Shown here: positions 1-17,210 of the stretch, in pieces
How the letters are laid out: each line of letters begins with the position of its first letter
Position numbering within the stretch: position 1 is the first letter of the stretch
Source of the DNA: a virus
Taxonomy: Duplodnaviria > Caudoviricetes
Virus record (IMG/VR): IMGVR_UViG_3300019742_000004
Coordinates: 1-54,711 of that record
DNA length: 54,711 nt
Strand: one strand, 5' to 3'
The notes under the pieces: generated by a model
Seen by the model: only the letters and a program-made list of their open reading frames with translations
Database searches by the model: none
Told to the model about the DNA's origin: nothing
Translations under genes and position numbers: made by a program

Positions 1-77
1 CAACAGAAATAGGCAAAGACATTTACCGTGTAGATATCAGCGGTAAAATAAATAACTTAAATTACGCACATTATTAA
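1..77 (+). CDS. 3' end of a truncated ORF (TEIGKDIYRVDISGKINNLNYAHY*), possibly a tail-region protein
   Basis: Open frame from the window edge to TAA 75-77. Confidence 0.45.
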   Translation, partial: TEIGKDIYRVDISGKINNLNYAHY

Positions 78-88
78 AATTTATTACT

Positions 89-175
89 ATGCCAATTGTA
101 AAGCCACCAAAAATACCTCCAACAGAGCTAGAGGGAGATGAAGTATCAGATGAAGATAACGTAGATAATGGTTAA
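89..175 (+). CDS. small Pro/acidic peptide MPIVKPPKIPPTELEGDEVSDEDNVDNG
   Basis: Read manually; fills the gap and overlaps the next start; N-terminus resembles MPIIKPTPP at 36575. Confidence 0.45.
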   Translation: MPIVKPPKIPPTELEGDEVSDEDNVDNG

Positions 176-548
176 TTTTATAAAGAAATACTATTTATAT
201 TTAGTGATAGGGCTTTACTTAGCTCTATCATTATTATACATTAATAAAGCTGAGTATAATATATGCTGGTCTGCATTCGGATATCTTACAGATAATATAT
301 TTATAATATTATTAATTATTTATCTTATCCCAAGACTAAAAGACACAAATTTAATGGTGTTTTCGTGCTTTATACCTGCTTATTTTATAATAAATTCAAT
401 TTTGGTGATTATCGGAAGTATAGTATCTAATGATATGAATGAATTTTTTAAATATGGTGATTCTCCAATAACTATTAATATAACAGTTGGAACAATGGTA
501 TTAATATTTATATTGTATCTATTGGGTAAAAAACATAAAATAATATGA
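168..548 (+). CDS. multi-pass membrane protein, lysis-region candidate
   Basis: About 4 hydrophobic segments; coupled to the next two membrane genes. Confidence 0.55.
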   Translation: MVNFIKKYYLYLVIGLYLALSLLYINKAEYNICWSAFGYLTDNIFIILLIIYLIPRLKDTNLMVFSCFIPAYFIINSILVIIGSIVSNDMNEFFKYGDSPITINITVGTMVLIFILYLLGKKHKII

Positions 549-850
549 AAGAATGGGTTAAAAATCTACAATTAAACATGGGTACAATTGTAGTTGTAGC
601 GTTATTATCATTCGTAGCAAGTATTTTTTTATACAACGTATCATCCAGCAACGAAAGAGCTGTTAGGCTGTATCAACAGACACAAGAGGAAATTAAGAAA
701 AAAGTAAGTACAGAAGTGTACGAAGCAAATAGAAGAACACAATCTGTTATAGATAAAACACAGAATGACAAAATACAAGCATTGGAAGATAATTTAAAAG
801 ATGATATTAAAGAGATAAAATTAGGTATGCAAGAATTGAGAGATAAGTAA
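545..850 (+). CDS. single-TM coiled-coil protein (holin/spanin-like candidate)
   Basis: N-terminal TM followed by charged helix; ATGA overlap with previous gene. Confidence 0.5.
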   Translation: MKEWVKNLQLNMGTIVVVALLSFVASIFLYNVSSSNERAVRLYQQTQEEIKKKVSTEVYEANRRTQSVIDKTQNDKIQALEDNLKDDIKEIKLGMQELRDK

Positions 851-1239
851 TGTTTAATATATTTAATAAAGTAAAAGGCGCAGGGATAACGGAAATAATG
901 AAAGGAGCTAAAGAGTTAGCCGATGAATTATTTACCACTAAAGAAGAGAAGCAGCAATTCTTATTAGATGCTTACAAAGAAGTTTCTAAAGATCGTCAAT
1001 CAGCTCGAAATATGTTTATTCACGATAGTTGGTTACAAAAGTCTTTTGCTATTTTATTTCTTGCATGCTGGCTTGTATTAACGTACTTATTATTAAATCA
1101 TTTTGTGGTAGGTAAAGTAGATCTTAAAGAATGGCAAATAGCCTTATTAAGTACTATATACGGAGGTATTAACACGAAATTAAATACTATTATAGATTTT
1201 TTATTTGGAGGTAGCGCGGGAGTTGATAAATCAAAATGA
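850..1239 (+). CDS. putative holin (3TM-holin-like)
   Basis: DELFTTKEEK...DRQSARNM, two TM helices and C-terminal FLFGGS, a pattern seen in phage holin-like proteins. Confidence 0.6.
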   Translation: MFNIFNKVKGAGITEIMKGAKELADELFTTKEEKQQFLLDAYKEVSKDRQSARNMFIHDSWLQKSFAILFLACWLVLTYLLLNHFVVGKVDLKEWQIALLSTIYGGINTKLNTIIDFLFGGSAGVDKSK

Positions 1240-1308
1240 TTTCACTATATTTACACAATCATATCGTAATACGATGTTTAGTTTGTGAAGATTTCATATC
1301 TCTTTACT

Positions 1309-1341
1309 GCCCAGATTCATCACTTCGAATCTGGGTTTCTT
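1309..1341 (+). terminator. intrinsic terminator
   Basis: cccagattc...gaatctggg stem followed by tttctt, downstream of the lysis genes. Confidence 0.55.
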
Positions 1342-1505
1342 ATTTATATTGCTTCTTAATAATAGAATTCTTAATTTCACAACTCAATATTAACTATTAG
1401 ACTAGATCAATAGTATCAACCTAAACAAACAAAAAAGATATGAAGTAGTTAATTAAATGGTTTAAATCGGACTTACCAACCACATAAATGAATTAGAGAT
1501 ACAAA

Positions 1506-1530
1506 GCCGCCAATATAGTGCGGTTTTTTT
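1506..1530 (+). terminator. intrinsic terminator insulating the cassette-array promoter
   Basis: ccgc...gcgg stem then T7. Confidence 0.55.
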
Positions 1531-1538
1531 GTACCCCT

Positions 1539-1643
1539 TATTTATATTCATTCTAAACACTTTTATACTTAGATTTGTGTAAACAAAAAAATAATAGGTA
1601 TGTATAAAAAGCGACGACGCAGGAGGAGAAATGAAGCCATAAC
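1539..1643 (+). repeat. 105-bp promoter/leader unit, copy 1 (inverted copy at 37721-37825)
   Basis: 102/105 identity to the reverse complement of 37721-37825; contains 19-bp operator-like box (1540-1558) and TAGATTTG -7 box (1570-1577); ends at AAC 1641-1643. Confidence 0.9.
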
Positions 1644-1719
1644 GGTACGGTTGTATATTATCGGTTGCTGATGAAGTGACCACATAAGTTGATTAGAATT
1701 ACTAACCGCCCAAACTTAG

Positions 1720-2061
1720 GTGCGTGGGCAAAAACTTTATGAAGCATTAGCATATGCTTATGAATTACTAAAAGAACAATCAGAAACAGGACACTACCCA
1801 GTAAGTGCACTTGCTGAAAATGGGGGTAAAGGTTATGAACCAATTACAAAAGTATTGAAAGAGTGTGAGGGCGAATATTTGAACGAGAGTAGCGGTTTGC
1901 ATTTACAACGTGTTAACGGCTGGCTTGAATTTTACGGAAACGAGCAGTTGTTTAATGACATGGCTAAACTTAATTGCCCTTGCAGATTTGATGATGGTAG
2001 CCAATGTAGATATAATGAAGAACACCCAATGGCAAAGCTAACGCACTTTAAAATAGTGTAG
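1720..2061 (+). CDS. hypothetical protein, cassette 1
   Basis: ORF (GTG start uncertain) reads through GTT 1912 and stops 10 nt before AAC 2071. Confidence 0.6.
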   Translation: MRGQKLYEALAYAYELLKEQSETGHYPVSALAENGGKGYEPITKVLKECEGEYLNESSGLHLQRVNGWLEFYGNEQLFNDMAKLNCPCRFDDGSQCRYNEEHPMAKLTHFKIV

Positions 2062-2130
2062 CTTGCCGTTAACGTGATTGGTATATAAACAAAATTTATT
2101 CACGGCAAATTTGCCACAAAAGATATTAAA

Positions 2131-2424
2131 ATGAAAGAACGTTTAAAATTACTACGTGCGGAGGCAAGCGACCTCCAAGAAAAACTTAGTAACAACAGTA
2201 AAGAACAAACAGAATTGATGATTGCTATTTACAAAGACGATACTAAGCTTGCTGTGGGCGATAAAGTGCTTGTTGACGGCAAAAAGAAAGGTGTAATCGA
2301 AAGCTTTGTCAGAAAATACAGTGAGGTTATGCCTAATGTGCAGTATTACAAGAAAGACGGAACGCTTGGTAAGAGATATGAGCGTGTGTGGGGTTTTCAG
2401 AAAATAGAAAAACTTAGTGAATAA
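2131..2424 (+). CDS. hypothetical protein, cassette 2 (inside the hairpin loop)
   Basis: Enclosed by a perfect 24-bp inverted repeat 2080-2103/2417-2440. Confidence 0.75.
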   Translation: MKERLKLLRAEASDLQEKLSNNSKEQTELMIAIYKDDTKLAVGDKVLVDGKKKGVIESFVRKYSEVMPNVQYYKKDGTLGKRYERVWGFQKIEKLSE

Positions 2425-2581
2425 ATTTTGTTTATATACCTTGTTGTGGTGTCGTTGCTTCTTTTGAAAGCGTGATGACGTTCAATGATTGCATATACTT
2501 ATTTATTATTTGCAATGCACCACAACGACTCGCATATGAGCCGTTTGGATTTAATAGTAAAAATTTCAAAAACATACAATA

Positions 2582-2938
2582 ATGAATGAAGAGAAAAAAG
2601 ATAATAACCGCACCGAAGCCCAAATGACTTATGATGCATTGTTAGCTACCGTTAAGTGCGGTGGGCTTTCAATCGATGAACTAAAAAGACTAAGAAATGC
2701 AGTGGTTGAAAAGGAAACAGAAAACTACCACAGCACAAGGAAGCTTATATATGAAATTGCATTAACTGACGATATGAGCCACTGCTTTAAAAAGCGTGAG
2801 GATGCAATTGAATACTTAACTACCGACCTTGAAGATAACGCAGAAGATTACTTTAACGAAAGTTCGGTTAGATTACGTGCGAGGTGGCTTGATATAGAAA
2901 CCTACAATGATTATAATGACCACTGGCTTGAAGTTTGA
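2582..2938 (+). CDS. hypothetical protein, cassette 3
   Basis: Starts in the loop and reads through GTT 2641. Confidence 0.7.
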   Translation: MNEEKKDNNRTEAQMTYDALLATVKCGGLSIDELKRLRNAVVEKETENYHSTRKLIYEIALTDDMSHCFKKREDAIEYLTTDLEDNAEDYFNESSVRLRARWLDIETYNDYNDHWLEV

Positions 2939-3103
2939 GCGGTGGCAATGGTAGCTAACGAAAAAGTATATGATTTCGAGCCGATAAATGGCACGACCTT
3001 ACGATAACAGATAAAGTAAATTAAAGATTATAAACAAACAAGATAGCACTAACACGGCTTGAATTATATACGGTGTTGTGCATCTTTTAAAAATGCGGAA
3101 ATA

Positions 3104-3310
3104 ATGAACGAAATTTATAGTGTAAAAGACAAATTGCCAGAGGTTGAATGTGGTAGCTACTTAGCTTATGCACCGCAAAGTTTCCCAAAAAATAGCCGAT
3201 GGGTAGTAGCTGAATATTATGATGATTCAAAAGGTTTTTATAGTGAATCAGGTGAGTTTTTTATGGATGACGTTACACATTGGTGTGAACTTCCAAAAGA
3301 ACCGAAATAG
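3104..3310 (+). CDS. DUF551-like phage protein, cassette 4
   Basis: SVKDKLPE...VTHWCELPKEP motif; in-frame ATG 3104 preferred over TTG 3059. Confidence 0.75.
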   Translation: MNEIYSVKDKLPEVECGSYLAYAPQSFPKNSRWVVAEYYDDSKGFYSESGEFFMDDVTHWCELPKEPK

Positions 3311-3451
3311 TAGCATTTTTTATTGTGCACAACGGTGGCAATAAGATTAAGCGTAGCGACCCGTAGGGTTAATTTTATTGCGTGTTGTGTGCTGTATAGC
3401 GACTTATCCCACGAATGATAATTAAATGTACTAATGTAAAAATATTTTAAA

Positions 3452-4348
3452 ATGTGCGATGGCAAAAATGGCTTTGAAAAAGCCAAAAATAAAGACCTTT
3501 TTGGTAATGAAATAATAACTAACCCATTATTGCGAGATAAATTTATTGAGCCACCTTTTTCTATTTTAGATAGTAAAAGTGGAAGTTGGAAAAAAAGGCG
3601 TAATTTATGGAAAAATATAGGCATAAAAAGTGAAGTTGGCAGAGATGTTAAAAGTATTGGATTATCTAAAAGTATATTAAATATTGGTAAAAATCATAAA
3701 GTGCATGAAGGTACTAGTATTTTTGACCCTGCATTGTGTGAAGTGATATATCATTGGTTTATTCCAAAAAATGGTAATATATTAGACCCTTTCGCTGGTG
3801 GTTCTGTACGTGGCATCGTTGCTAATTATTTAGGATATAAATATACAGGCATTGATATAAGGCAAGAACAAATAAATAGCAATAGGGAGCAAGCTATTGA
3901 TATACTTGACATAAATAACCAACCTCAATGGTATGTTGGGGATAGTAACGAAGTATTGAATGAATTTAACACTTCTTTTGATTTTATCTTTAGTTGCCCC
4001 CCTTATGCAGATTTAGAAGTTTACAGCGATTTGCATGGTGATATTTCAAATATGAATTATGTTGAATTTATGAAAGCATATGAAGAAATAATTGCAAAGA
4101 GTTGTAATTTATTAAAAAGCGGTGGTTATGCATGTTTTGTAGTTGGTGAGGTTAGAGATAAAAAAGGTAATTACATAGGATTTGTCCCAGATACAATTAA
4201 TGCATTTAAGAAATGCGGAATGAAATATTATAATGAAGGTATTTACTTGCAAGGATTAGCAGGTGCTTGTATGACCGCAGGGAAGCAAATGGAATCTTCT
4301 AAAAAATTAAGAAAAATACACCAGAACATATTAATATTTAAAAAATAA
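3452..4348 (+). CDS. DNA amino-methyltransferase (N4-C/N6-A), cassette 5
   Basis: SAM-binding LDPFAGGS and catalytic-like SCPPY motifs. Confidence 0.85.
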   Translation: MCDGKNGFEKAKNKDLFGNEIITNPLLRDKFIEPPFSILDSKSGSWKKRRNLWKNIGIKSEVGRDVKSIGLSKSILNIGKNHKVHEGTSIFDPALCEVIYHWFIPKNGNILDPFAGGSVRGIVANYLGYKYTGIDIRQEQINSNREQAIDILDINNQPQWYVGDSNEVLNEFNTSFDFIFSCPPYADLEVYSDLHGDISNMNYVEFMKAYEEIIAKSCNLLKSGGYACFVVGEVRDKKGNYIGFVPDTINAFKKCGMKYYNEGIYLQGLAGACMTAGKQMESSKKLRKIHQNILIFKK

Positions 4349-4352
4349 AATT

Positions 4353-4502
4353 ATGACACGTTTAACAAGATTACAAAAACACGGATGGAATGTAGTTAAT
4401 TATATGAGTGGTAATGGTTGCCAAGCAACCAAAAACAACGGATTAACTAAAATTACAGGGAAAAGCATTACTGATTTGCATAGACAAATATTTTGTTATT
4501 AA
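4353..4502 (+). CDS. small hypothetical protein (49 aa), cassette 5
   Basis: Read manually: MTRLTRLQKHGWNVVNYMSG...HRQIFCY*, 4 nt after the MTase stop. Confidence 0.55.
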   Translation: MTRLTRLQKHGWNVVNYMSGNGCQATKNNGLTKITGKSITDLHRQIFCY

Positions 4503-4626
4503 TGGCTTTTTCAAAGCCAAGAGGGAGGGAAATTTTAAAATATTTTGGGCAATATGGTACAATCTTTAATAAATGTACGGAACTAAGCCATATTGCATAC
4601 AACGTAAATAATAAATACAGTACGAC

Positions 4627-4875
4627 ATGAAAGCAGAATTATTTGATATATTAACGGACGTTGAAAAGGGCAGAATTACCGCCACCGTAGCCACTACAAA
4701 AGTATTGGATTTATTTAGTGTTAGCGGTAGTATTGGTGATATGATCGAGGACAATAGAACTAGATGCCCTAAATGCAAAAGTCCAAACATAGATCTTCCG
4801 CTAAGACTTACAAATTGGAGCAATACAGGCAAAGCAAAATGCCAAGAATGCGGTAATGAGTTTCACGACTTCTAA
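4627..4875 (+). CDS. zinc-ribbon protein, cassette 6
   Basis: CPKC...CQEC; reads through GTT 4720. Confidence 0.7.
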   Translation: MKAELFDILTDVEKGRITATVATTKVLDLFSVSGSIGDMIEDNRTRCPKCKSPNIDLPLRLTNWSNTGKAKCQECGNEFHDF

Positions 4876-4876
4876 T

Positions 4877-4926
4877 ATTACCGCTAACTACCCGATAAGT
4901 ACACATAAACATAATTACCTAACAAC
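4877..4926. repeat. attI-like array-terminal site, copy 1
   Basis: 50-bp perfect direct repeat of 24525-24574; ends 14 nt before the recombinase ATG. Confidence 0.85.
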
Positions 4927-4940
4927 TAGATAAATAAAAC

Positions 4941-5756
4941 ATGAGAAACTCTATACCTATTAGAAATTTAGAGGAATATATGTTTATAAAACAATATTCT
5001 AAAAATACTGTTGATAATTATATATCATGTATAAAAAATGTCTTGAAAAACTCTAACAAAGATGTATACCATTTAACAGTAGATGACTTTAATAATTATA
5101 TTATTAAAAGCAATAAATCATCTAGTTTTAATAACCTAGTTGTTAGTTCAGGTAAACTATTTTTTTATTATGGATTAAAAAGAAAATCAAATAATAAATT
5201 TTTACACAGACCTAAAAAATCTAAAAAAATAATAGAAATTTTAACACAAAAAGAAGTATGGAGTATTATAGATTCTATTAATAACATAAAACAAAAAAGT
5301 ATTATATCTGGTATATATCTTCATGGCTTAAGAATATCAGAGGTTCTGAATTTAAAGTACGAAAACATAGATAGACACAGAAAACTATTGACTATTAGAG
5401 AGGCTAAAGGTAAAAAAGATAGATTAGTCCCTTTAAATAAATTTTGGCTAGAGCACTTAGAAGTATATGCTAAGAAAATGAATCATAAAAAAGGTTATAA
5501 TGAACCAATATTTACTCCTTACTCTTTATCATCTATCAGAAGTACTTTAAAAAAGTACGCTAAAAAGGTAGGAATAAGAAAGAAAATATACCCTCATTTA
5601 CTTAGAGATACTTACGCGAGTCATTTATTACAAAGCGGCTTTGATATTTCGTTAATTCAAGAAATATTAGGTCATTCAAAAATATATACGACAAGGAAAT
5701 ACATACATTTTTCAGCGGTGAATATATCGGCTGTGTGCCTTAAGAAAGTAATTTAA
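4941..5756 (+). CDS. tyrosine recombinase (Xer/integrase family), candidate cassette integrase
   Basis: Complete catalytic set: GLRISE, KGKKDR, HLLR, LGH, TRKY; short SAM-like N-domain YSKNTVDNY. Confidence 0.92.
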   Translation: MRNSIPIRNLEEYMFIKQYSKNTVDNYISCIKNVLKNSNKDVYHLTVDDFNNYIIKSNKSSSFNNLVVSSGKLFFYYGLKRKSNNKFLHRPKKSKKIIEILTQKEVWSIIDSINNIKQKSIISGIYLHGLRISEVLNLKYENIDRHRKLLTIREAKGKKDRLVPLNKFWLEHLEVYAKKMNHKKGYNEPIFTPYSLSSIRSTLKKYAKKVGIRKKIYPHLLRDTYASHLLQSGFDISLIQEILGHSKIYTTRKYIHFSAVNISAVCLKKVI

Positions 5757-5941
5757 ATTCATTCTAAACTAAAATAGAACTAATATTGTGACATGAAAAA
5801 ATACAGAAGAAAATACCCGAATGGGGTACTAGGCTCCCAATTCTACTCTAAAGAAGAATTAAGCAAGTTTAAAATTTGTTTTGGAGCTGATAGCTTAATA
5901 GAATACGATAAAGGGGATAAGACAGGTAAAATATACAAAGT

Positions 5942-6286
5942 ATGGGAACTATGCGACGTAAAATAAAAGAAGTATTAAAAGCCGCTATCGAAGGATTAGA
6001 CTTTAATAGCGTGCAAATATTAAACTACGCTACTTTCATCTTATCAATAAATATAGATAAAGTAGAATTTACATACACTCGATCTCACACGACTAAGCAC
6101 TTATCGCTAGACTTAACAGGCGACATACAAATAAATAAATTCGAAGGCTACGCGAATGTAAATGTAGACGATTTAGAGTTATTTGTTTGGGATACTGACG
6201 GAGACCCAGAGCCTCACGACTTCGAGATGGTTGATGTATGTGAATTACTAACAGATTATATTAATGATAACTTAGAATCATTCTAA
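5942..6286 (+). CDS. hypothetical protein
   Basis: ORF in the + strand gene run. Confidence 0.6.
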   Translation: MGTMRRKIKEVLKAAIEGLDFNSVQILNYATFILSINIDKVEFTYTRSHTTKHLSLDLTGDIQINKFEGYANVNVDDLELFVWDTDGDPEPHDFEMVDVCELLTDYINDNLESF

Positions 6287-6347
6287 ACTACCTATAAGCT
6301 ATGTAATGTAACTTATAGGTAGTATATTTAAACTAAAATAATGAGAT

Positions 6348-6845
6348 ATGAGTAAAACACACTACAGAAAAGTATTTAAATCAGATCATCTAGGACAAGC
6401 TGACTTAGAAGATATGATAGAAGAAGGTAAAAGATTAGTATTTACCATAAAAGAAGTAAGGCAAGAAATAGGCGTTTCGGTTGCTGGCAGAACAGGCAAT
6501 CATAATATAGCTTATTTCGTTGAACCTATCAAACCATTAGTGTTAAATGCTACTAATAGTAAAACAGTTAGAGGATTTAACCAGAACAGCCCGTTTGTTG
6601 AGGATTGGGGTAATACATTAATTGAACTATACATTGATACTAATGTTAAAATGAAAGGCGAAATAGTTGGAGGCGTGAGGATAAAACCAAAACAACCAGC
6701 GATAACTAAACCTGAAATCACACCAGATAGTGCAAAATGGAAAGACGCTGTAGCTTATTACGAAAAACATAAATGCTTTACAGGTGTGCTAAAACATTAT
6801 ACCCTATCCGAGGCTAACCAAAAAAAGATAAAAGATGAAGCTTAG
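6348..6845 (+). CDS. putative ssDNA-annealing/recombination partner protein
   Basis: Overlaps YqaJ gene start; function inferred from position only. Confidence 0.5.
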   Translation: MSKTHYRKVFKSDHLGQADLEDMIEEGKRLVFTIKEVRQEIGVSVAGRTGNHNIAYFVEPIKPLVLNATNSKTVRGFNQNSPFVEDWGNTLIELYIDTNVKMKGEIVGGVRIKPKQPAITKPEITPDSAKWKDAVAYYEKHKCFTGVLKHYTLSEANQKKIKDEA

Positions 6846-7488
6846 ATACGATATAGCTCAGAACTCTGAAGAATGGTACGATATAAAGCTGGGTAAATTC
6901 TCAGCTTCTATTGCTGGTGACTTGCTAATGGATAAAAAAAACAAAGGTTATTCAAATCTTATAAAAAAAATATCTGAAGAGCGAATGACGGGAGAAGCTT
7001 GTGAAAGTAATAGCTTTAAAGGTAATGCATTCACAGAAAGGGGTCATGAATTTGAACCAATAGCCAGAGAAGATTATGAAATAAGAACATTTAACGAAGT
7101 TAAAATAATAGGCGTTATTGAGCGAGATGATTGGTGTTTGTGTTCTCCAGATGGTTTGATAGACGATAACGGATTACACCAAATTAAATGCCCTATATTT
7201 AATACACAAAGCGAGTATCTATATACATATAATAAATACAAGGATACATTAACTGCGAATGAATTAATGTGTAAAATATCATCTACATATTATAAACAAA
7301 TGCAGTTTGAATTATTTGTATCAGAAAGAGAATACAATATATTTACTTCGTATCACCCTAAATTAGCCGCAATAGATATTATAATAACTAGAGATGAAGA
7401 TATGTTAAGGGCTATTGAATATAGATTGATAGAGGCAAAAGAAGAAGTAGTAAAAAGAATTGAATTATTAAAATCTTATAAAAACTAA
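6835..7488 (+). CDS. YqaJ/lambda-exonuclease family recombinase
   Basis: QNSEEW, RGHEFEPIAR, CSPDGL, QIKCP, YYKQMQ motifs. Confidence 0.9.
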   Translation: MKLRYDIAQNSEEWYDIKLGKFSASIAGDLLMDKKNKGYSNLIKKISEERMTGEACESNSFKGNAFTERGHEFEPIAREDYEIRTFNEVKIIGVIERDDWCLCSPDGLIDDNGLHQIKCPIFNTQSEYLYTYNKYKDTLTANELMCKISSTYYKQMQFELFVSEREYNIFTSYHPKLAAIDIIITRDEDMLRAIEYRLIEAKEEVVKRIELLKSYKN

Positions 7489-7491
7489 AAC

Positions 7492-7857
7492 ATGAAATTC
7501 AAAGTATCATTTAAAAAAGAAGTAGAAGGTAAAATAAAGGCTGTATGGGTATTAATAAGCTCCGATACTTACGGACATGCCGAAGAACAGTTTTTCAATT
7601 ACTGCGAAGAACACGAAATACCTATGTCGTTAGGTGAGTATAAAATAGTACCCACGAAAATAACAGATATTATAGTAAATAAAGAGTGTAGCAACTGGTA
7701 TTTAATCACCTACGTAGACACATGTGACGACAAAGAAGTATCATTTCAAGCGTTAATCGAAAGTGACAACGATATAAACGCCCGCAAGGAGATTGAAGAA
7801 ATAGTAAACGTTAAGAGTACGGTATCAACAAAATATATAGATGTAATATGTCAGTAA
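7492..7857 (+). CDS. hypothetical protein (DUF4494-like)
   Basis: Resembles Bacteroidota DUF4494 layout; weak. Confidence 0.45.
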   Translation: MKFKVSFKKEVEGKIKAVWVLISSDTYGHAEEQFFNYCEEHEIPMSLGEYKIVPTKITDIIVNKECSNWYLITYVDTCDDKEVSFQALIESDNDINARKEIEEIVNVKSTVSTKYIDVICQ

Positions 7858-8255
7858 ACAAAGTAATTTTAGTGGGTCGAGTTGGTAAAGATCCTGAAAT
7901 AAAGTATTTAGACGGAGGTACTGCGGTTGCAAACTTTCCTCTAGCAACAAGTGAAAGCTACAAAGATAAGAGCGGCGAAAAAAAAGAAGTAACTGAGTGG
8001 CATAATATATCTATTTGGAGAAGTCTAGCCGAAGTTGTAGAAAAGTATGTTAAAAAAGGTAGTCTTCTATATTTAGAAGGTAAAATTAAAACAGAAACAT
8101 ACGAAAAGAACGGCGAAAAAAGATATTCAACAAAAATAGTCTGCAATCAAATGCAAATGCTAGGAGGCAACCAGACCAAGGAGCAAAAGCCAGCGGATAG
8201 TTTTGATAACGAACCTACGCCGCCGCCAGACGACATAAATGAATTTCCATTCTAA
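7848..8255 (+). CDS. ssb: single-stranded DNA-binding protein
   Basis: VNKVILVGRVGKDPE, TEWH, acidic C-terminus ending FPF. Confidence 0.95.
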   Translation: MSVNKVILVGRVGKDPEIKYLDGGTAVANFPLATSESYKDKSGEKKEVTEWHNISIWRSLAEVVEKYVKKGSLLYLEGKIKTETYEKNGEKRYSTKIVCNQMQMLGGNQTKEQKPADSFDNEPTPPPDDINEFPF

Positions 8256-8324
8256 AACGGTAAAATAAATTATTTTAATTTCTTCCTTTTTAGTAATTTT
8301 GGAGGGAATTAATATTAATAGCCT

Positions 8325-8828
8325 ATGGATACATTAATTTGCACTTTATGTGCGATAGAAAAGCCATTTAATGAGTTCTACAAGAACAAAGGAATGCCTT
8401 CTGGTTACGCTAACCAATGTAAAGAATGCGTAAAAGCAAGGTCTAAAAAAAGAGAGGAGGTGTTAAGGCAAAATCCTGAATGGGTAGAGAAGGAAAAGGC
8501 TAGAGCAAGGGATAAATACAGAAGACTAGGATATAACCATAAGCAAAAAGAATGGGACAAAAAAAGGCCATGGACTAAAATATATGTTTACAAAAACATA
8601 AATAGAGACCTTAAAAGAAAAGGTTTGTTGAATGATTCCCAAACTGCTCACCACTGGAACTATAATCTCCTTAAAGATGTATTTATTTTAAATAAAAAAG
8701 TTCACAGAAAACTACATAGGTTTATCAGGATAGACGAAGAGACGTTATGTTTTAGGACAATAGAAGGTAATTTATTAGACACTAGAGATAAGCACCAAAA
8801 TTATATTAATATAATAGAAAAATTATAA
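8325..8828 (+). CDS. HNH endonuclease-like protein
   Basis: CTLC...CKEC zinc motif, AHHWNY, HRKLH. Confidence 0.7.
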   Translation: MDTLICTLCAIEKPFNEFYKNKGMPSGYANQCKECVKARSKKREEVLRQNPEWVEKEKARARDKYRRLGYNHKQKEWDKKRPWTKIYVYKNINRDLKRKGLLNDSQTAHHWNYNLLKDVFILNKKVHRKLHRFIRIDEETLCFRTIEGNLLDTRDKHQNYINIIEKL

Positions 8829-8883
8829 ACTTAATTTTTTAATTAACTTATAAACAAAAATAAAGCTAGGCGGGACTAGCGGA

Positions 8884-8917
8884 AAGCGGCGGGTTTATAA
8901 CTTTGCCGCTTTTTTTT
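8884..8917 (+). terminator. intrinsic terminator
   Basis: aagcggc...gccgctt stem followed by a T-tract. Confidence 0.65.
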
Positions 8918-8979
8918 GTTTAATGTTTTGTAATTTCATAAAAAGTATTAACTTTGTGAATATATCAATACACAAAAAT

Positions 8980-9684
8980 ATGAAGCATACATTAATGGAA
9001 AGGCCTTTAATGGGCAGTATGATAAGGCAAAGGGTAGATAATGAAATGCTATGCCTTACTGACTTATCAAGAATCTATGAAGCTGAAAGGGTTAAAAATG
9101 GATGGGTTGAAAAAAGATTAGACTGGTTTTTTAATAACGATTCTGAACAAGAGTATATTATAGAATTACTTGATTTACAGGGATGTTTCATAAACGTGAA
9201 AAAATTAACGTTTATGGATCAAGTTAAAAATCAAGGTCTTGTTAAATCTTTGAAATCAATAGGCCAATATAAGACAGGCGGTAGAGGTGAGAACAAAGCA
9301 GTATATTGTAATCCTTATATTTTTGTTGCTGTAGCTCAATGGTTGAATCCTAAATTTAGAGCGAAAGTTACAATGTGGGTAACCGATCAGCTTATTCTTA
9401 ATAGAATTGAAGCAGGAGCAAATTACAATACTCTTTGTGATTCTATAAAAGAAAAGATTCTTCCGCAAAGCAGTGATAATTCAAAGAAATTTATATTTTC
9501 TAACTTCGCTAAACTTATTAATAACCATGTATTCGGTAAGCATGACAGCGATTTAAGACACATAGCCAGTAAAGAACAGTTGACTAAACTAAGAGACACA
9601 GAAATAGAACTAACTACACTTATAAATGTAGGGTTTATTTCATCTTATCAAGAGGCTAAAGAATATTTAAAAAATAAGATATGA
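8980..9684 (+). CDS. KilA-N domain DNA-binding protein
   Basis: IRQRVD...LTDL, GRGENKAVYCNPYIFVAVAQWLNPKF; ATG 8980 follows a TAACTTTG box. Confidence 0.85.
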   Translation: MKHTLMERPLMGSMIRQRVDNEMLCLTDLSRIYEAERVKNGWVEKRLDWFFNNDSEQEYIIELLDLQGCFINVKKLTFMDQVKNQGLVKSLKSIGQYKTGGRGENKAVYCNPYIFVAVAQWLNPKFRAKVTMWVTDQLILNRIEAGANYNTLCDSIKEKILPQSSDNSKKFIFSNFAKLINNHVFGKHDSDLRHIASKEQLTKLRDTEIELTTLINVGFISSYQEAKEYLKNKI

Positions 9685-10070
9685 AAAAAATAATCATTAC
9701 TCATTTATGGGTTATAGGTTTTGGTTGGGAAAACACAATTTACTCAACAGAAGATTTCAATAATGTGATGGAACTAAATAAAATAGATAATAAATTTTAC
9801 GAGTTCGAAGCAACACAAGGAGGTAAATCCTATTTATTAAAAGGTTATTATGTTAAAGATGATGAAATAGTAGATACTCAGTATGAATATACTAAAGAGT
9901 TAAATAACGAAAGAATATGCGACCAATGTGGATCAGAAATGAAAGAATTAAAAAAACCGCGTAAAAAGTATGGCAAGCATAATACTATATACAAATGTAC
10001 TTATTGCGATCATACACATAGAAAGAGAACACAAAACGAAATACTAAGAGATAAAGGATTAAGAGAATGA
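9681..10070 (+). CDS. zinc-finger hypothetical protein
   Basis: CDQC...CTYC. Confidence 0.55.
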   Translation: MKKIIITHLWVIGFGWENTIYSTEDFNNVMELNKIDNKFYEFEATQGGKSYLLKGYYVKDDEIVDTQYEYTKELNNERICDQCGSEMKELKKPRKKYGKHNTIYKCTYCDHTHRKRTQNEILRDKGLRE

Positions 10071-10251
10071 ACAAACTAAAACAGCAATTCAAGTCACTAA
10101 CCGACAACGAGAAAAAGGTTATACGCAAATATTTAGACAAAGAAGTTTATAACGAGTTAAATAGTTAATTATGGAAGAAATTATACAACAAGCTCAGGCA
10201 GATAACAGTAAATTACTAGGTGTAAGATATAGTGATAAATTACCTTTTTAA

Positions 10252-10671
10252 ATGGCATTCTACGACTTAAAAGAAGACAGCAAGGTAGAACAAATAACTA
10301 ACTACCTTGCTAAACTTATATCAGATAAATCCACGGTAGAACTCAGGAGGGTAAAGCCTAAAAGAACTAATAGTCAAAATGCGTATTTACATGTACTTTT
10401 TACGCTATGGGGACTAGAACACGGCTATACTGTTGAAGAAGCAAAAACAAACGTAAAAAGACACTTTCACAATATATTTGTTTACGAGAAGAAAGGTCAT
10501 AAATACCTAGGCCGTACAAGGGATATGGACACAAAACAAATGACTGATTTTATAGACCAATTTCGTAATTGGTCAGCTTCAGAAGGGTATTATTTACCTA
10601 GTCCAGACGAATACAAAGGCAAGTACGCCTACTATCAGAATATAATTGAAATTAATAAGGAGTTTTTATAA
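10252..10671 (+). CDS. NinB-like recombination protein
   Basis: KRTNSQNAYLH...TRDMDTKQMTDFID...LPSP. Confidence 0.7.
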   Translation: MAFYDLKEDSKVEQITNYLAKLISDKSTVELRRVKPKRTNSQNAYLHVLFTLWGLEHGYTVEEAKTNVKRHFHNIFVYEKKGHKYLGRTRDMDTKQMTDFIDQFRNWSASEGYYLPSPDEYKGKYAYYQNIIEINKEFL

Positions 10672-11030
10672 TGAAATTTAAAACAGTTAGTGAGTTATTT
10701 AAACATATTAGCGAAACAAGGGAAATGAAGAGCCAGTTATCGGGAGATCCGTTATTAAATACTAATCATAGTTTACATCATTGGCAATATTTACATATCC
10801 TATCTAAAAATTCGCATACGTTATGGAAAACTGATGAAAGAAACGTAATTCTTGGTACAGTAGAAGAGCACAATAATCAAGAAAGTAACGAAACATTTAA
10901 GCTTATACAGGCAGCAGCAAAAAGGCGTTATATGATAGAAAACGAGGGTAAAAATTTCCCTTTAGACCAGCCTTTTGATTGGTTATTTATGGATAGTGAG
11001 GAAATCAAAACACTTAAAGCTTATGAGTAA
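10671..11030 (+). CDS. HNH/NinG-like nuclease-fold protein
   Basis: HILSK...DERNVILG...EH pattern. Confidence 0.45.
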   Translation: MKFKTVSELFKHISETREMKSQLSGDPLLNTNHSLHHWQYLHILSKNSHTLWKTDERNVILGTVEEHNNQESNETFKLIQAAAKRRYMIENEGKNFPLDQPFDWLFMDSEEIKTLKAYE

Positions 11031-11298
11031 AAGATTCGCTAAAGTAGACAGCAACCAGCCGCAAATAGTCAAGGAACTACGAGAAAAAGGATATACAGTT
11101 AAACATCTACACGAGCTTAAAAACTTCGTTGATATAACTGTAGGACACAAAGGAGTTAATTATCTATTCGAGATAAAACCCGATAAGTCAAAAAAACTAA
11201 CCCCCGGGGAACAAAAGTTTTTCGATGAATGGACAGGCCAAAGAGATGTGATATACTGCGCTCAAGACGCTATTGATATAATAGAAGGGAATAAATAA
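11023..11298 (+). CDS. VRR-NUC-like nuclease / Holliday junction resolvase
   Basis: AKVDSNQPQIV...D...FEIK...LTPGEQKFFDEW. Confidence 0.8.
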   Translation: MSKRFAKVDSNQPQIVKELREKGYTVKHLHELKNFVDITVGHKGVNYLFEIKPDKSKKLTPGEQKFFDEWTGQRDVIYCAQDAIDIIEGNK

Positions 11299-11351
11299 TT
11301 ACTTAGAACCATTATAAATAAGGACATAATGGTTTTATTTTTCTCTAAATA

Positions 11352-11383
11352 GTTGCAATGTACGCAACGGTTAACTATATTTG
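11352..11383 (+). promoter_or_regulatory. Bacteroidota-type promoter overlapped by GTTGC-N7-GCAAC palindrome
   Basis: gttgcaatgtacgcaac 11352-11368; TATATTTG 11376-11383. Confidence 0.6.
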
Positions 11384-11418
11384 TAATGTAATAATTCATA
11401 AACGAAAAATATAAAGAG

Positions 11419-11592
11419 ATGAGAGCAACAGTATCATATTCAGAAAGCGGAAAAATTCAAGTTTTTACAACTAAAGAATTAAAAGGAAGAGGAGTTAGAA
11501 ACATTGGTTTAAAATCTAACGGTGAAACTCGTTACTTACTAACACAAAAGGCTTACGATAAAATACAACACCTTTGCGAATGGATTGGATAA
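11419..11592 (+). CDS. small hypothetical protein (57 aa)
   Basis: Read manually, MRATVSYSESGK...LCEWIG*, directly behind the promoter. Confidence 0.6.
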   Translation: MRATVSYSESGKIQVFTTKELKGRGVRNIGLKSNGETRYLLTQKAYDKIQHLCEWIG

Positions 11593-11839
11593 AATTAAAA
11601 GAGAAGTTCCCGAATAGCTATAAGTAAATTCGGGAATTTTCTGAAAAAACAAATACAATAGGAAGAACGTGTCTTTATAGGTTTTTAAAATCAAAAGGTT
11701 ATCCTGATAGTTTTATTTTAACAAAATATCTGAAAGAGTACGAGAATGATAATACTAAATAAATACACGCCAGAAGCATACGGAAACCTTAAAACACTAT
11801 GCGATGCTTTAAAAGTAAGTTACTACACTTATAAAGCAT

Positions 11840-12226
11840 AACGTAGATGCGGTATGAGTAGGCCGCTTTGTAGACTGCTCAAAATTTAGTAATAGCCTTG
11901 ATAGCGGCTTACTTATGACCGCTTGTTAGGCACAGTACGATACTGAAAATGGAAAATTACATAGTGACACTAAAGAGAAGAACAACTCTAAAATGCTTTA
12001 GGAATAGGATTTTAAAAATGAGATTCGGGTTAAATAAAATCGAACATAGGAACTTTAGTAGACTTGATAACGGTTTGAAAAGAGGACACTTAAAATCCGT
12101 TGGTTCAAGAGAGCTATACAGGATATTGAATAGGTACATAAATATGAGTAACGAAGAGTTGTTTTGTAGCGATATATTTCTACTTGAGATAAAGTAGTAT
12201 TGTGTCTAACTAGTCGATAAAAACAC
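11840..12226 (+). mobile_element. single-cassette satellite array 2 with degenerate attI-like end
   Basis: AAC 11840; arms gcggtatgagtaggccgct / agcggcttacttatgaccgc; GTTaggcacagtac 11925 pairs with gtattgtgtctAAC ending 12210; then tagtcgataaaaacac. Confidence 0.8.
11949..12197 (+). CDS. hypothetical basic protein, cassette cargo
   Basis: ORF fits exactly between GTT 11925 and AAC 12208. Confidence 0.6.
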   Translation: MENYIVTLKRRTTLKCFRNRILKMRFGLNKIEHRNFSRLDNGLKRGHLKSVGSRELYRILNRYINMSNEELFCSDIFLLEIK

Positions 12227-12276
12227 CTTTACCACCAGCTAACCCTTTAACTTACAAGCAACAATACAGTATAAAT

Positions 12277-12456
12277 ATGAAACTAAAAGACAAGATAATT
12301 AAAAGCGGTCTTAGTAACTATTACATAGCACAGCACTCAGGTATAAACAAATCAACAGTAGGTCGTATAAGATCAGGTATAATAAGATACCCGAGAGATG
12401 AAACAGCCGAAGCTATAGAAAAGGCTATTAAGAATCATTCTAAACAGCAAAAATAA
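12277..12456 (+). CDS. XRE/Cro-like helix-turn-helix protein (59 aa)
   Basis: Read manually: GLSNYYIAQHSGINKSTVGRIRSG...PRDETAEAI. Confidence 0.75.
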   Translation: MKLKDKIIKSGLSNYYIAQHSGINKSTVGRIRSGIIRYPRDETAEAIEKAIKNHSKQQK

Positions 12457-12466
12457 ACGCAAATTA

Positions 12467-12498
12467 GTTGCAAGGCTCGCAACTAGGTATTATATTTA
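12467..12498 (+). promoter_or_regulatory. promoter with GTTGC-N7-GCAAC palindrome
   Basis: gttgcaaggctcgcaac 12467-12483 followed by tatattta. Confidence 0.55.
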
Positions 12499-12527
12499 CA
12501 GTATAGAAATTCAAAAAAAACAAAGAG

Positions 12528-12821
12528 ATGAGACTAAATACAAAAAACAAAAGCACAAGGTTCATGAATGGCAACATTGATGTCGATGGCGTTATTTTAG
12601 ATATTCTTATAGAAGAACATGGTCACGCCGCTGTATACTCATCTAATATTGATTTTAGTGAAGCAATTTACTCAAATGGGTTTATTGAAGCTATAGAGGA
12701 TGATAAAATACCTATGTTAAAATTATATCCAACTGATTCACATAGATTTTATAATGAATTAAGTGAATATCATCATATTATTGTGAATGACGAATGTTAT
12801 AATGTATATTTTAAAAACTAA
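12528..12821 (+). CDS. hypothetical protein
   Basis: ORF behind the promoter. Confidence 0.6.
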   Translation: MRLNTKNKSTRFMNGNIDVDGVILDILIEEHGHAAVYSSNIDFSEAIYSNGFIEAIEDDKIPMLKLYPTDSHRFYNELSEYHHIIVNDECYNVYFKN

Positions 12822-12831
12822 ACATAAGATT

Positions 12832-13167
12832 ATGAAAACTTCAACAAAAAATTACGAACATGAATTAAAATGGTTTAACAATCTAACATCTAAAAACAAC
12901 GAATCAGTATCACATGTTTATTATATACAAGATATCCAGACAATAGAGATGCTTAACAAGTATTTTGAAGATTCAGGAGGAGAGCAGAAGTCTGCTATAT
13001 GGGTAGATATAGACGGCCTTATAACTAAGGCTAGTATTGATTGCACTAAAGAAGGTTGTAATTGTTCAGGATCATGGAGTGAAGAGTACTGTGAGCATGA
13101 AGAGGAAGATTTTTATTTCAATTACGAAGATTTATTTAATATTCTTAGTTTACGATATAAACATTAG
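12832..13167 (+). CDS. hypothetical protein
   Basis: ORF; non-overlapping ATG 12832 chosen. Confidence 0.6.
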   Translation: MKTSTKNYEHELKWFNNLTSKNNESVSHVYYIQDIQTIEMLNKYFEDSGGEQKSAIWVDIDGLITKASIDCTKEGCNCSGSWSEEYCEHEEEDFYFNYEDLFNILSLRYKH

Positions 13168-13230
13168 TCACTCCAGCCCCGCTCTGAAACAAAAGCGGGG
13201 AATTGGTGGTAAAACTAAAAAACTTTTGAT

Positions 13231-13515
13231 ATGAAAGATTTATATTATTTCGAAAAAGAAAAAACTTTAATTTGGATAACTGGATACGGTAGTTTTAATA
13301 ATTTAAAAGATAGATTCGAACACTACAGTGAAAAAGCAGACATCCTCAGTAAATTAATAAACAGAGATACTAATGATGTATGCCATTTGTTTATAGAAAA
13401 TTCATCTAGATTCGAAAGAATGAATTGCTTTTATCTACAAGGTGTAACAGAAAAACCAGAAGAAGCAATGGAAATGTGTGAAGATTGGACTGTAAGTAGT
13501 TGGATAAGGAGGTAG
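13231..13515 (+). CDS. hypothetical protein
   Basis: ORF with GATATG start context. Confidence 0.6.
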   Translation: MKDLYYFEKEKTLIWITGYGSFNNLKDRFEHYSEKADILSKLINRDTNDVCHLFIENSSRFERMNCFYLQGVTEKPEEAMEMCEDWTVSSWIRR

Positions 13516-13518
13516 CTT

Positions 13519-13773
13519 ATGAAGCTTAAAATAATACAAGTATGTCAAAAGTTCCAGATTCAGGAACGAATACCCTGCACTAACGTATTCCTAAAAGCAA
13601 ATATCAGCGGTGTAATAAACTCATTTTCTAATATACCAGCCGCTTTAAGAATAATAAAGAAAAAGTACGGATACAAAGGAGAAGAACTAAAAATAATTAT
13701 TGATTATGGAGTTAATAAAGATAGGATTTTCGCAGGAGAGACTAATAAAACTATTCCACGCCAGAAAAGATAG
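13519..13773 (+). CDS. hypothetical protein
   Basis: ORF in tight operon. Confidence 0.5.
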   Translation: MKLKIIQVCQKFQIQERIPCTNVFLKANISGVINSFSNIPAALRIIKKKYGYKGEELKIIIDYGVNKDRIFAGETNKTIPRQKR

Positions 13774-13982
13774 TGAAATAAAACTAAACGTAACTAAAGC
13801 CGATATAATAAATGCAAAGTATGGTTTTAGCAAAATATCTAAAAACTGAAATTATGAAATATTCATTAACAGATTAGCTTTTATAAGCCAGAAACTTATA
13901 CAGTTATGTTATATAAAAGGAAAAGATCTTTCCGAAAGCGAATACAGAACACTAGAAGAGAACAACTATTTAATTTAATGTT

Positions 13983-14177
13983 ATGGAAAAAATAACTCTA
14001 AAAGAAGTAAACGCAATTAATGAGATTTTATACCAACAAGTAGAAGCTTTACAGAAATACGAAGGTGACGACATCACAACCTCATGTAACGCTATATTAA
14101 GCGCAATTCAGCGTAACATCAAGTATTTTACCGATCAAAATCTTAAGAAGGATGGGAATAAAACAAGTAATTCTTGA
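13983..14177 (+). CDS. hypothetical protein
   Basis: ORF in operon. Confidence 0.5.
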   Translation: MEKITLKEVNAINEILYQQVEALQKYEGDDITTSCNAILSAIQRNIKYFTDQNLKKDGNKTSNS

Positions 14178-14352
14178 TTACGTATCAAGTAAACAAAACA
14201 AAGAACACGGAGTAAGTAGAACTAGGATATTTAACTATTTTAATAATATTTACACCCGTGACGAAATATCACAATCAATAAGCGAGTTACAAACCGAAAA
14301 ATTAATGAGATATGAAAACCCAACAGGACAAATCTACACGACTGACATGTAG
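14152..14352 (+). CDS. small winged-helix-like protein
   Basis: ILDYV...GVSR...EISQSISEL...GQIYT pattern. Confidence 0.45.
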   Translation: MGIKQVILDYVSSKQNKEHGVSRTRIFNYFNNIYTRDEISQSISELQTEKLMRYENPTGQIYTTDM

Positions 14353-14531
14353 ATCATTAGCATTATTTAGATCAAAAAGAAAAGAGCTAGCGATGAAAGG
14401 CATAAAAGCGATATACGCTGGTGAATCAAAAGACGCACCAGAAGAGTTAAAACAAAAGGGCGACTTGAGGTGGTTGGTTGTTTGGTAACGACTATAAAAT
14501 AAAAACACCTTTTAATCTAAAAAAACAAGAT

Positions 14532-14708
14532 ATGAAAAATAAATTTCCAGAAAATAAAAAACTTAGCATAAAATACAGGTGCAAAGAAGACGGCGGTGTA
14601 TATTCTGCCGAACAAGCAAGTAATATGCCTAACAATCATTTCAGGTTAATAACTGAGAAAGGCAAAGAAATTGGTGAATTTGTAAAATGGAGTGATGAAA
14701 CTAACTAA
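14532..14708 (+). CDS. hypothetical protein
   Basis: AGATATG start; overlaps the MTase start. Confidence 0.5.
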   Translation: MKNKFPENKKLSIKYRCKEDGGVYSAEQASNMPNNHFRLITEKGKEIGEFVKWSDETN

Positions 14709-15483
14709 AAAACAAATAAAAGCACACGAAGAGGCTTGCAAGTTACTAGAGAAAGATAAATTAACTTTTGAAGATAAGATTTATGTTTTAGATAATTGGC
14801 AAGAAGGAGCTAATAACGTTAATAGTGTAGCGGGTGCTTTTTTTACACCTTGGAAATTAGCAAGAGATTTTAAATTAGCTGTATATTCAGATAAGAGAGT
14901 TATCGATCTATGCGCAGGAATAGGTGCTTTGTCTTTATTCATGGTAGAGCATGCCAAATGGGAGCAGAAAGTACCTGAAATAGTATGTTTAGAACTTAAC
15001 CACTCTTACATAGAAGTAGGTAAAAAAATAGTTCCTGAAGCAACTTGGATACATGGCAGCGTATTAGATCCTGAACTTATAAACTCATTAGGTCATTTTA
15101 CGCAAGCTATTTCTAATCCTCCTTTTGGAAGTATTAAAACAGGATCAGAATATAAGAAGTTTCTAAAATATAAAGGCTCGCAATTCGAGCTGAAAGTTAT
15201 AGAGATAGCTTCGCAGATCGCGGATTTTGGAAGTTTTATAATTCCCCAAATGAGTACACCTTATAAATATTCTGGAAATAACGGAATGTACGAAATGAAA
15301 GGAGATGAAATGCCACAAAAAGTTAAAACATTTATAGATCAAACTAAACTAGAGTATGATTTCAATTGCGGTATTGATACAGAGCAATATATAAACGAAT
15401 GGAAAGGCGTATCACCGATGTGTGAAATAGTTACTTTTGATTTCACACAAACTAAAAAAGCAATCCAACAAACATTATTCTAA
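14692..15483 (+). CDS. DNA adenine methyltransferase
   Basis: GAFFTP, VIDLCAGIGAL and NPPF motifs. Confidence 0.85.
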   Translation: MMKLTKKQIKAHEEACKLLEKDKLTFEDKIYVLDNWQEGANNVNSVAGAFFTPWKLARDFKLAVYSDKRVIDLCAGIGALSLFMVEHAKWEQKVPEIVCLELNHSYIEVGKKIVPEATWIHGSVLDPELINSLGHFTQAISNPPFGSIKTGSEYKKFLKYKGSQFELKVIEIASQIADFGSFIIPQMSTPYKYSGNNGMYEMKGDEMPQKVKTFIDQTKLEYDFNCGIDTEQYINEWKGVSPMCEIVTFDFTQTKKAIQQTLF

Positions 15484-15761
15484 TGGCAACAGATAAACAA
15501 CATTATAATTCAATTGTTAAGCGAGGTCTTATAAACGACAAGACAAGTAAACAAGACTTCAGAAAACAAATCATAGAAGAATTTCAAGAGCTAATAAAAG
15601 AACTCTACTACAACATAGATAATGATAAATTAAACGCAAAAGAGATACAAGAAAGCGTTGATTTAGTGCAAACTATAAAGAATATGTTTATCTATTTTGA
15701 CGTAGATTACAACACAGCTTTAGAAGTTAATATTAATCACCAACTAAGCCGTAAAGACTAA
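15483..15761 (+). CDS. MazG-like/all-alpha NTP pyrophosphatase-like protein
   Basis: EEFQEL...QESVDL acidic helices; weak. Confidence 0.4.
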   Translation: MATDKQHYNSIVKRGLINDKTSKQDFRKQIIEEFQELIKELYYNIDNDKLNAKEIQESVDLVQTIKNMFIYFDVDYNTALEVNINHQLSRKD

Positions 15762-15884
15762 TTTATATTTGTTCTAAACAACTAAATCACGATATTCGTA
15801 ATGAATTAGAAACCCAGATGTGAAATATAATTTTAACATTATAGATTCAGTTTAAGACTTCTGGGTTTCTTTAAAAACTAAGAT

Positions 15885-16844: not shown

Positions 16845-16869
16845 CTTGGTATTTTTTAGTAATCAGCGC

Positions 16870-16902: not shown

Positions 16903-16916
16903 AAAAAATTAGAGAT

Positions 16917-17204: not shown

Positions 17205-17210
17205 AAAGAT

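Follow-up and report, generated by a model that had tools for sequence, protein, structure and literature searches.

The 50-nucleotide sequence that occurs twice in this genome is best explained, with a probability of about 0.7 judged from sequence comparison, as an attI-like docking site of a phage-borne and integron-like cassette platform, which would work independently of IntI and would not be a canonical integron. The anatomy of the site, the conservation of a short motif within it, and the turnover of cassettes at the equivalent site of the Polaribacter phages named Freya are directly visible in the sequences compared here.

The window (the whole stretch of DNA analysed, 54,711 nt) is the entire assembly, in one contig, and looks like the genome of a tailed phage. 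Almost all of its listed open reading frames (ORFs) lie on the plus strand, and the GC content is around 32%. It encodes a large terminase (30145-31521) and a DnaB-like helicase (20371-21753), together with a replication initiator, a RecE-like exonuclease, an endonuclease VII, NinB and two DNA methyltransferases. A megablast search with the region 4000-9000 found no match, and hence no close relative, among 50,697 phage records. Four public microbial-mat runs contain the stretch; within the scope of assembled contigs over 1300-21299 and joints with sides of 20-43 nt, array 3 and copy 2 lying outside, no variants of the window's own phage were found.

Anatomy of the repeated site and its cassettes

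The 50 nt at 4877-4926 are identical to those at 24525-24574, as an earlier note on this DNA had stated from the sequence alone, and a weaker match extends to 63 nt at 94%. The only exact repeats of at least 25 nt in the genome are this pair and a 108-nt inverted repeat (1539-1646 and 37718-37825). A third and weaker copy (TAACTAGTCGATAAAAACAC) is found at 12207-12226, where the same note had placed the end of array 2 in a shared consensus. That consensus, with up to two mismatches, occurs at exactly three places, the shuffle expectation being 0.09 and none of 100 shuffles reaching three, although the pattern was taken from those same three sites and the count is in part circular. A 26-mer taken from 4885 and searched on both strands with up to eight substitutions recovers only 4885 and 24533 (0 substitutions each) and 12207 (7). 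Across the whole genome, a 19/26 match such as that of 12207 is by itself close to what chance would give. What lends it weight is its position, in register and immediately behind the ...TAAC that terminates a strong inverted-repeat unit, an end which each of the three sites directly adjoins.

The 50-mer is made of two parts. The left 12 nt (ATTACCGCTAAC, 4877-4888) belong to the 3′ hairpin arm of the last cassette, while the right 38 nt are constant and unpaired. The site had been described as lacking a hairpin partner; this does not hold for the left part, which pairs in all three copies, and it does hold for the right part, since 4885-4940 folds at 0 kcal/mol on the plus strand and at -0.7 on the minus strand. 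In copy 1, the constant part covers 4889-4926 on the plus strand (TACCCGATAAGTACAC...CCTAACAAC), joins exact repetition and lack of fold to the conserved motif described below, and stands 52 nt upstream of a tyrosine recombinase gene whose start codon is at 4941; a weaker likeness to copy 2 extends to 4939. The constant part of copy 2 (24537-24574, plus strand) is the exact repeat and is followed by an ORF at 24693-24869 without a Pfam family; no recombinase gene follows it. Copy 3 is a variant (12211-12244, plus strand, TAGTCGATAAAAACAC...GCTAAC), after which a helix-turn-helix gene is found (12277-12456, HTH_3 match). Of the three copies, only copy 1 precedes a recombinase gene. Of the layout that had been proposed, the adjacency of site and recombinase gene holds at copy 1, which lies directly before that gene, and not at copies 2 and 3, which adjoin none.

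Immediately after the AAC, the sequence shows a direct TAAC-N7-TAAN arrangement. The site repeat matches no family in Rfam, the window contains no tRNA or tmRNA gene, and an exact 24-mer of the site has no match in the viral contigs. The GTTAGCG that had been taken as a fixed core did not stand up: its complement CGCTAAC is found 7 times where 3.4 would be expected, a count that 8 of 100 shuffles also attain. GCYTAAC, tried as another fixed core, was rejected with 11 occurrences against 12.9 expected. Since neither is enriched, only the GTT/AAC triplets with variable arms matter.

The pairing of the arms is clear at the three ends. The 3′ arm of the last cassette of array 1 (4872-4888, plus strand, CTAATATTACCGCTAAC), which contains the left 12 nt of the repeat and ends in the AAC of the presumed crossover, pairs with a 5′ arm at 4720-4736 (plus strand, GTTAGCGGTAGTATTGG) inside the ORF 4627-4875; 17 positions are paired, two of them as G.T, with a score of 16. 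In array 3, the corresponding arms are 24523-24536 (plus strand, GAATTACCGCTAAC) and 24365-24378 (GTTAGCTGTAGTTC), and the pairing extends 2 nt to the left of the 50-nt identity, with bases that differ from those of copy 1. The single cassette of array 2 holds a unit at 11925-12210 (plus strand), with arms at 11925-11941 (GTTAGGCACAGTACGAT) and 12194-12210 (GTAGTATTGTGTCTAAC). In the whole genome, GTT...AAC units with a score of at least 11.5 number 15, against 3.15 ± 1.97 (maximum 9) in 100 dinucleotide shuffles.

The units conserve structure rather than sequence. Among 35 units, tabulated for the window, for Freya and for six metagenomic loci, GTT/AAC fills positions 1-3 in 33-35, and positions 4-9 and 12-14 form Watson-Crick pairs in 28-34, with at least four pair types at each; these pairing counts are partly circular, the units having been chosen by complementarity. 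The irregular positions escape this circularity because the scan penalised mismatches and wobbles: position 10 is A-T (13 units) or T.T (10 units), and position 11 is G.T in 25/35, with T on the 3′ arm in 32/35. Given that a G.T on the plus strand is an A.C mismatch on the other, position 11 makes the stems inherently different between the two strands. Loop lengths run from 25 to around 1,200 nt, and the loops often enclose an ORF; the upper lengths are long for a folded-strand substrate and count against a folded-strand reading.

Three arrays of such units are found, all on the plus strand, their junctions being placed from unit ends and from a leader pattern: internal units continue, after YAAC, into G-N5-9-GTAT(G)..TAGTnGCG, the leader of the next cassette. 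Array 1 (1644-4888) comprises six cassettes, with junctions after 2073, 2526, 2959, 3333 and 4603, and passes after 4888 into the site and the recombinase gene. Array 2 has a junction after 11842 and a single cassette, with the variant site after 12210, and array 3 (23226-24536) comprises three cassettes, with junctions after 23225, 23748 and 24250 and the site after 24536. The claim that the site closes all three arrays is supported, in that a constant unpaired sequence to the right of ...TAAC ends each of the three hairpin-closed runs of small genes. The simpler possibility that a cassette is the GTT...AAC unit alone, with an AAC-GTT palindrome in the circle, was rejected, as the leader ahead of the 5′ arm is part of the insert in Freya_6 and of the deletion in Freya_8. 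An identical 14-nt leader (GTAGATGCGGTATG; 11843-11856 and 23226-23239) opens the first cassette of array 2 and that of array 3.

The cargo is small and mostly unnamed, and includes a DUF551 protein and a DNA methyltransferase (3452-4348) in array 1, an acyl-carrier-like ORF and zinc-ribbon-like ORFs. The acyl-carrier-like ORF (23826-24119, array 3) carries a phosphopantetheine-attachment domain (PF00550, E = 3e-8), unusual in a phage early region. In a DNA alignment of the two terminal cassettes closed by the exact copies (around 285 and 286 nt), the match is confined to the arm regions and the 50-mer. Their cargo differs, and BLASTP does not align their proteins (82 and 75 aa) with each other. 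Just before the ORF, several cassette leaders of unrelated phages contain GCACGAA(A/C)GTTGATTAAATG (window 23770-23800; L002 around 650-670 and 1300-1318; L009 around 1665-1690), a possible shared signal for the expression of cassette genes.

Conservation and turnover in related phages

Scans of viral and metagenome contigs yielded 12 loci, of which 11 carry relatives of the recombinase at 49-54% identity, with six distinct upstream sequences. Conservation upstream of homologous recombinase genes, which the earlier note had proposed as a check, is evident: the motif AAC-TAC-N3-ATAA-N2-ACA, with the presumed cut between AAC and TAC, lies around 45-55 nt before the start codon in all six upstream sequences and Freya, and both variants of the window contain it. 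Its invariant columns are AAC, TA and CA, and a hairpin arm ending in ...AAC precedes it in all six. At the twelfth locus, whose recombinase is 28% identical, the motif is absent. Arrays of like units stand upstream of the recombinase in L002, L005, L009 and L010. It is important to note that, in the pairs L005/L011 and L002/L005, homology breaks inside cassettes and not after AAC, which counts against the docking-site reading; these breaks are read as different cargo on homologous hairpin modules. A hairpin module of around 170-240 nt is homologous at L005 1514-1750, L002 453-622 and L011 360-596 and is attached there to different cargo ORFs. Its single 3′ arm has an outer and an inner 5′ arm as alternative partners and covaries with both.

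A conserved box at a roughly fixed 45-55 nt from the start codons of the relatives' recombinases would also be expected of a shared regulatory element, that is, a promoter, operator or leader serving the genes after copies 1 and 2. Both exact copies do precede plus-strand genes, by 52 and 118 nt, and the arrays end where functional modules meet. Nonetheless, a scan for σ70-type as distinct from Bacteroidota-type promoters, and one for terminators, detected nothing inside either copy on the plus strand, the genes that follow copies 2 and 3 have no relation to the recombinase, and regulation alone does not explain why the Freya breakpoints (see below) fall exactly at the left edge of the element. 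Regulation as the sole function appears improbable; a dual role, regulatory and docking, is possible.

The nearest cultured relatives are the Polaribacter phages Freya_1 to Freya_10, whose recombinase is 30.5% identical to that of the window and starts at very different offsets from the beginning of the record (62 to 4159). In the seven of the ten isolates that were compared by sequence, six different cassette ends (those of Freya_1, Freya_2, Freya_5, Freya_6, Freya_9, and of Freya_8 and Freya_10, which are the same) are joined to an identical recombinase-proximal ACCCCTATAAC..., the constant sequence before the recombinase gene being ACCCCTATAACAACAATAAG. Freya_8 lacks exactly one internal cassette, and Freya_6 has a cassette that is not present in Freya_10. 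All breakpoints lie immediately 3′ of AAC, and at each of the seven left ends an inverted-repeat unit, with a score of 12-23.5, has its 3′ end. The crossovers thus fall within the 3-nt AAC, with cassette-specific bases retained right up to it, and longer identities beside them, such as TTGTT, were not used; this argues for a site-specific cut over a homology-driven exchange. Nesting of the Freya arrays starts at the far end, which is what gain and loss of cassettes beside the site would produce, and this agrees with the earlier proposal that the newest cassette is nearest to it. Freya_10 has a single exact copy of its site (one exact among nine matches at up to three mismatches), as opposed to two exact copies plus one variant in the window.

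The position of the Freya crossovers also bears on whether the 50-nt repeat is a passive scar, copied by a recent duplication or by homology-driven shuffling and without a dedicated function. The exact identity is longer than the function of a site would need and points to a recent duplication or conversion, which counts against the docking-site reading. Unrelated sequence flanks it, and the common arm sequences of the terminal cassettes could seed homologous exchange. There is a precedent in T4-type phages, where repeated intergenic stem-loop motifs (PeSLs) flank small variable genes by which close relatives differ, much as here; in the portions of those reports considered, the shuffling is ascribed to homologous recombination between the repeats, with no dedicated recombinase (PMC2839356; PMC4122927). 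In the window, on the contrary, a recombinase gene stands at the end of an array and the breakpoints are fixed at one triplet. PeSL-type exchange is expected to break inside a shared stretch, whereas all Freya breakpoints are in or at the 3-nt AAC and not in the longer adjacent identities. The motif is moreover kept across lineages whose recombinases are only 30-54% identical, unlike a scar, and the diverged third copy, which likewise follows a hairpin end, has kept the boxes in register. A scar is, according to this evidence, a very unlikely origin for the site. Further points count against the docking-site reading. The recombinase of Freya shares only 30.5% identity with that of the window, copies 2 and 3 adjoin no recombinase gene, and Freya_10 has just one exact copy of its site. 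Copies 1 and 2 are moreover direct repeats 19.6 kb apart that flank the replication genes, and recombination between them would delete these genes.

The phages Freya were described by Bartlau et al. (2021; PMC8776804), in the part of the paper considered here, with the integrases of Freya, Danklef and Leef taken as a sign of a possible temperate life; the main text contains none of the terms 'indel', 'insertion', 'deletion', 'variable region', 'cassette' or 'intraspecies'. That interpretation favors reading the site as the attP core that an ordinary phage integrase would use to insert the phage into a host chromosome, with the cassette-like variation incidental, and attP is usually located beside int, as copy 1 is. 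Against this, one genome contains three copies of the site, neither a tRNA nor a tmRNA gene is present in the window, nothing in Rfam matches the repeat, and lysogeny does not explain six cassette ends joined after AAC to one constant sequence. A scan for the family across 185,579 species of bacteria and archaea, each represented by a single genome and weak evidence as it used two peptide patterns only, found two loci, one of them a close relative on a 3.2-kb contig of a metagenome-assembled genome without prophage context. An attP core is an unlikely identity for the site.

In Danklef_5 and Danklef_1 (L036, L037 4835-4966), the recombinase gene is reduced to a remnant of 44 aa, 99.6% identical to the 3′ half of that of Freya, and a minus-strand ORF covers the place of the lost 5′ half. 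Danklef_1 and Danklef_5 are alike for 4.5 kb upstream of the remnant. Danklef could be used as a natural recombinase-dead relative, that is, as a control.

The recombinase and its likeness to known systems

The gene after copy 1 (4941-5756, plus strand) encodes a tyrosine recombinase of 271 aa, Xer/XerA-like, with a Pfam PF00589 match at 1.5e-33. The catalytic R-K-H-R-H-Y residues R131, K156, H219, R222, H245 and Y254 are conserved in the family alignment. The best NCBIfam match is XerA-like (181 bits, under the model cutoff of 220), while the integron integrase model TIGR02249 gives 127 bits against a cutoff of 265 and skips the IntI-specific stretch. The integron-integrase match is split in two (query 8-180 on profile 3-180 and, with PRK15417, query 201-264 on profile 259-322), and around 58 profile positions are consequently missing from the recombinase. 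The nearest PDB entries are archaeal XerA (4a8e and 5hxy), followed by IntI4 (2a3v) in two stretches. Metagenomes hold around 35 proteins of the family at 45-61% identity. The recombinase as a single query against viral contigs confirmed 0 of 47 candidate stretches, and the relatives were found through the family alignment that this failure made necessary.

The site would function much like an integron attI, whereas membership of the integron family fails on integrase, site polarity and gene orientation. The likeness consists of a constant site that separates a run of small cassettes from an adjacent tyrosine recombinase gene, cassettes closed by imperfect inverted repeats in which structure is conserved rather than sequence, a GTT/AAC triplet as the only feature common to the partner sites, and, in Freya, near-identical strains that differ by the cassettes adjacent to the site. 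In integrons, attC sites are imperfect palindromes of around 57-141 nt with the consensus 5′ RYYYAAC ... GTTRRRY 3′. The window units follow an analogous logic, with an invariant triplet, a covarying stem and fixed irregular positions (10 and 11), but their stems have GTT at the outer 5′ and AAC at the outer 3′ end, so that the attC polarity is reversed and the units do not qualify as attC. Their loops, of 25 to around 1,200 nt and often with an ORF inside, differ as well. The recombinase lacks the IntI-specific stretch and falls below the integron-integrase cutoff. All cassette ORFs and the recombinase gene are on the plus strand with the array upstream of the gene, and the cassette genes point toward the recombinase, while an integron integrase is divergent from its cassettes. 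Integron cassettes are expressed from a promoter at the attI end, and the promoter-like repeated element of the window is at the far end (1539-1646); each window cassette starts in addition with a conserved leader (G-N5-9-GTATG..TAGTnGCG). Furthermore, there are up to three putative docking sites per genome and the carrier is a phage. For these reasons, the 'canonical intI-attI arrangement' that the earlier note had seen has to be given up: the recombinase is not IntI, the genes point toward it, the polarity of the hairpins is opposite to that of attC, and the left 12 nt of the supposed site belong to a cassette hairpin.

Xer enzymes offer a second comparison. XerC and XerD integrate folded single-stranded phage DNA of the CTX-phi type, in which a Xer-type enzyme acts on a hairpin-folded strand with one strand exchange. 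The window recombinase is in the same clade and its nearest solved structures are XerA. As a difference, the enzyme is here encoded by the phage and the outcome is an array of cassettes, as opposed to the integration of a whole element at dif. The site shows no 11-6-11 palindrome of the dif type (around 28 bp, with two inverted 11-bp arms and a 6-bp spacer), 4885-4940 having neither inverted symmetry nor a fold.

Canonical attC clusters (CALINs) and integrons have been reported in phages, including the marine Polaribacter phage P12002L; in the portion of that paper considered here, the attC sites were found with HattCI/Infernal, and the enzyme that recombines them is the bacterial IntI1, no phage recombinase being involved (Qi et al., 2023; PMC9892861). 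The present case has in common with them recombination sites of the integron type in a phage and DNA methyltransferases in the cargo. P12002L contains no match to the window's recombinase at E ≤ 1e-5.

Taking the docking-site reading as the working model, the Xer-like recombinase (4941-5756) would cut directly after the invariant AAC at the base of the GTT...AAC stem of a cassette, and the cut end would be joined to the constant TAC-N3-ATAA-N2-ACA. Cassettes would enter and leave beside the site, with the latest addition sitting closest, and one recombinase would serve the three sites at the ends of runs of six, one and three cassettes. This assumes that the window's recombinase acts at the window sites and that copies 2 and 3 are active, which we infer from sequence. 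Since the partner sites have nothing but AAC in common and diverge beyond the cut, the most likely course is that a folded strand takes part in a single-strand exchange and that replication then finishes the reaction, as happens in integrons; which strand is used is likewise inferred.

A broader reading, which we consider fairly probable, is that marine flavobacterial-type phages carry an IntI-independent analogue of the integron, consisting of a Xer-like recombinase, cassettes with stems of fixed geometry (GTT, six covarying pairs, a T.T/A-T position, a G.T wobble and further pairs) and one or several attI-like docking sites, the three of the window being the most elaborate seen. Integrons are regarded as a bacterial invention bound to one integrase clade; if the analogue is real, cassette capture evolved more than once. 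It would also mean that co-infecting phages could exchange small early genes as cassettes, would provide a concrete mechanism for the rapid turnover of small 'ORFan' early genes in phages, and would leave the 'integrase' genes of such phages as no evidence of lysogeny. No description of such a system was found in the literature searched (main texts, not all journals). The Freya isolates and their host, Polaribacter sp. HaHaR_3_91, exist and make up a culturable test system.

Other repeats in the genome

The two copies of the 108-nt inverted repeat (1539-1646 on the plus and 37718-37825 on the minus strand) are 96% complementary, and both contain a tiny ORF rich in arginine (MYKKRRRRRRNEAIT... 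and MDKKRRRRRGRNEAIT...) together with an AT-rich stretch that resembles a promoter. Their similarity stops at ...GAAGCCATAAC, exactly where array 1 has its first junction. At 37.8 kb, the minus-strand copy leads the only minus-strand gene block of the genome (37.0-37.8 kb), which opens with a duplicated leader ending in ...CCATAAC. This block was considered as a cassette array and rejected, as it ends in a terminator-like hairpin without an attI-like site. Finally, intergenic direct repeats of around 23 nt (TAATTTAnATTyrTTCTAAAC) are present at 1538, 5749, 6268, 15759, 19820 and 22201, and also at 24633, and may be phage promoters; one copy lies around 60 nt past the attI-like copy 2 and another immediately after the recombinase gene.
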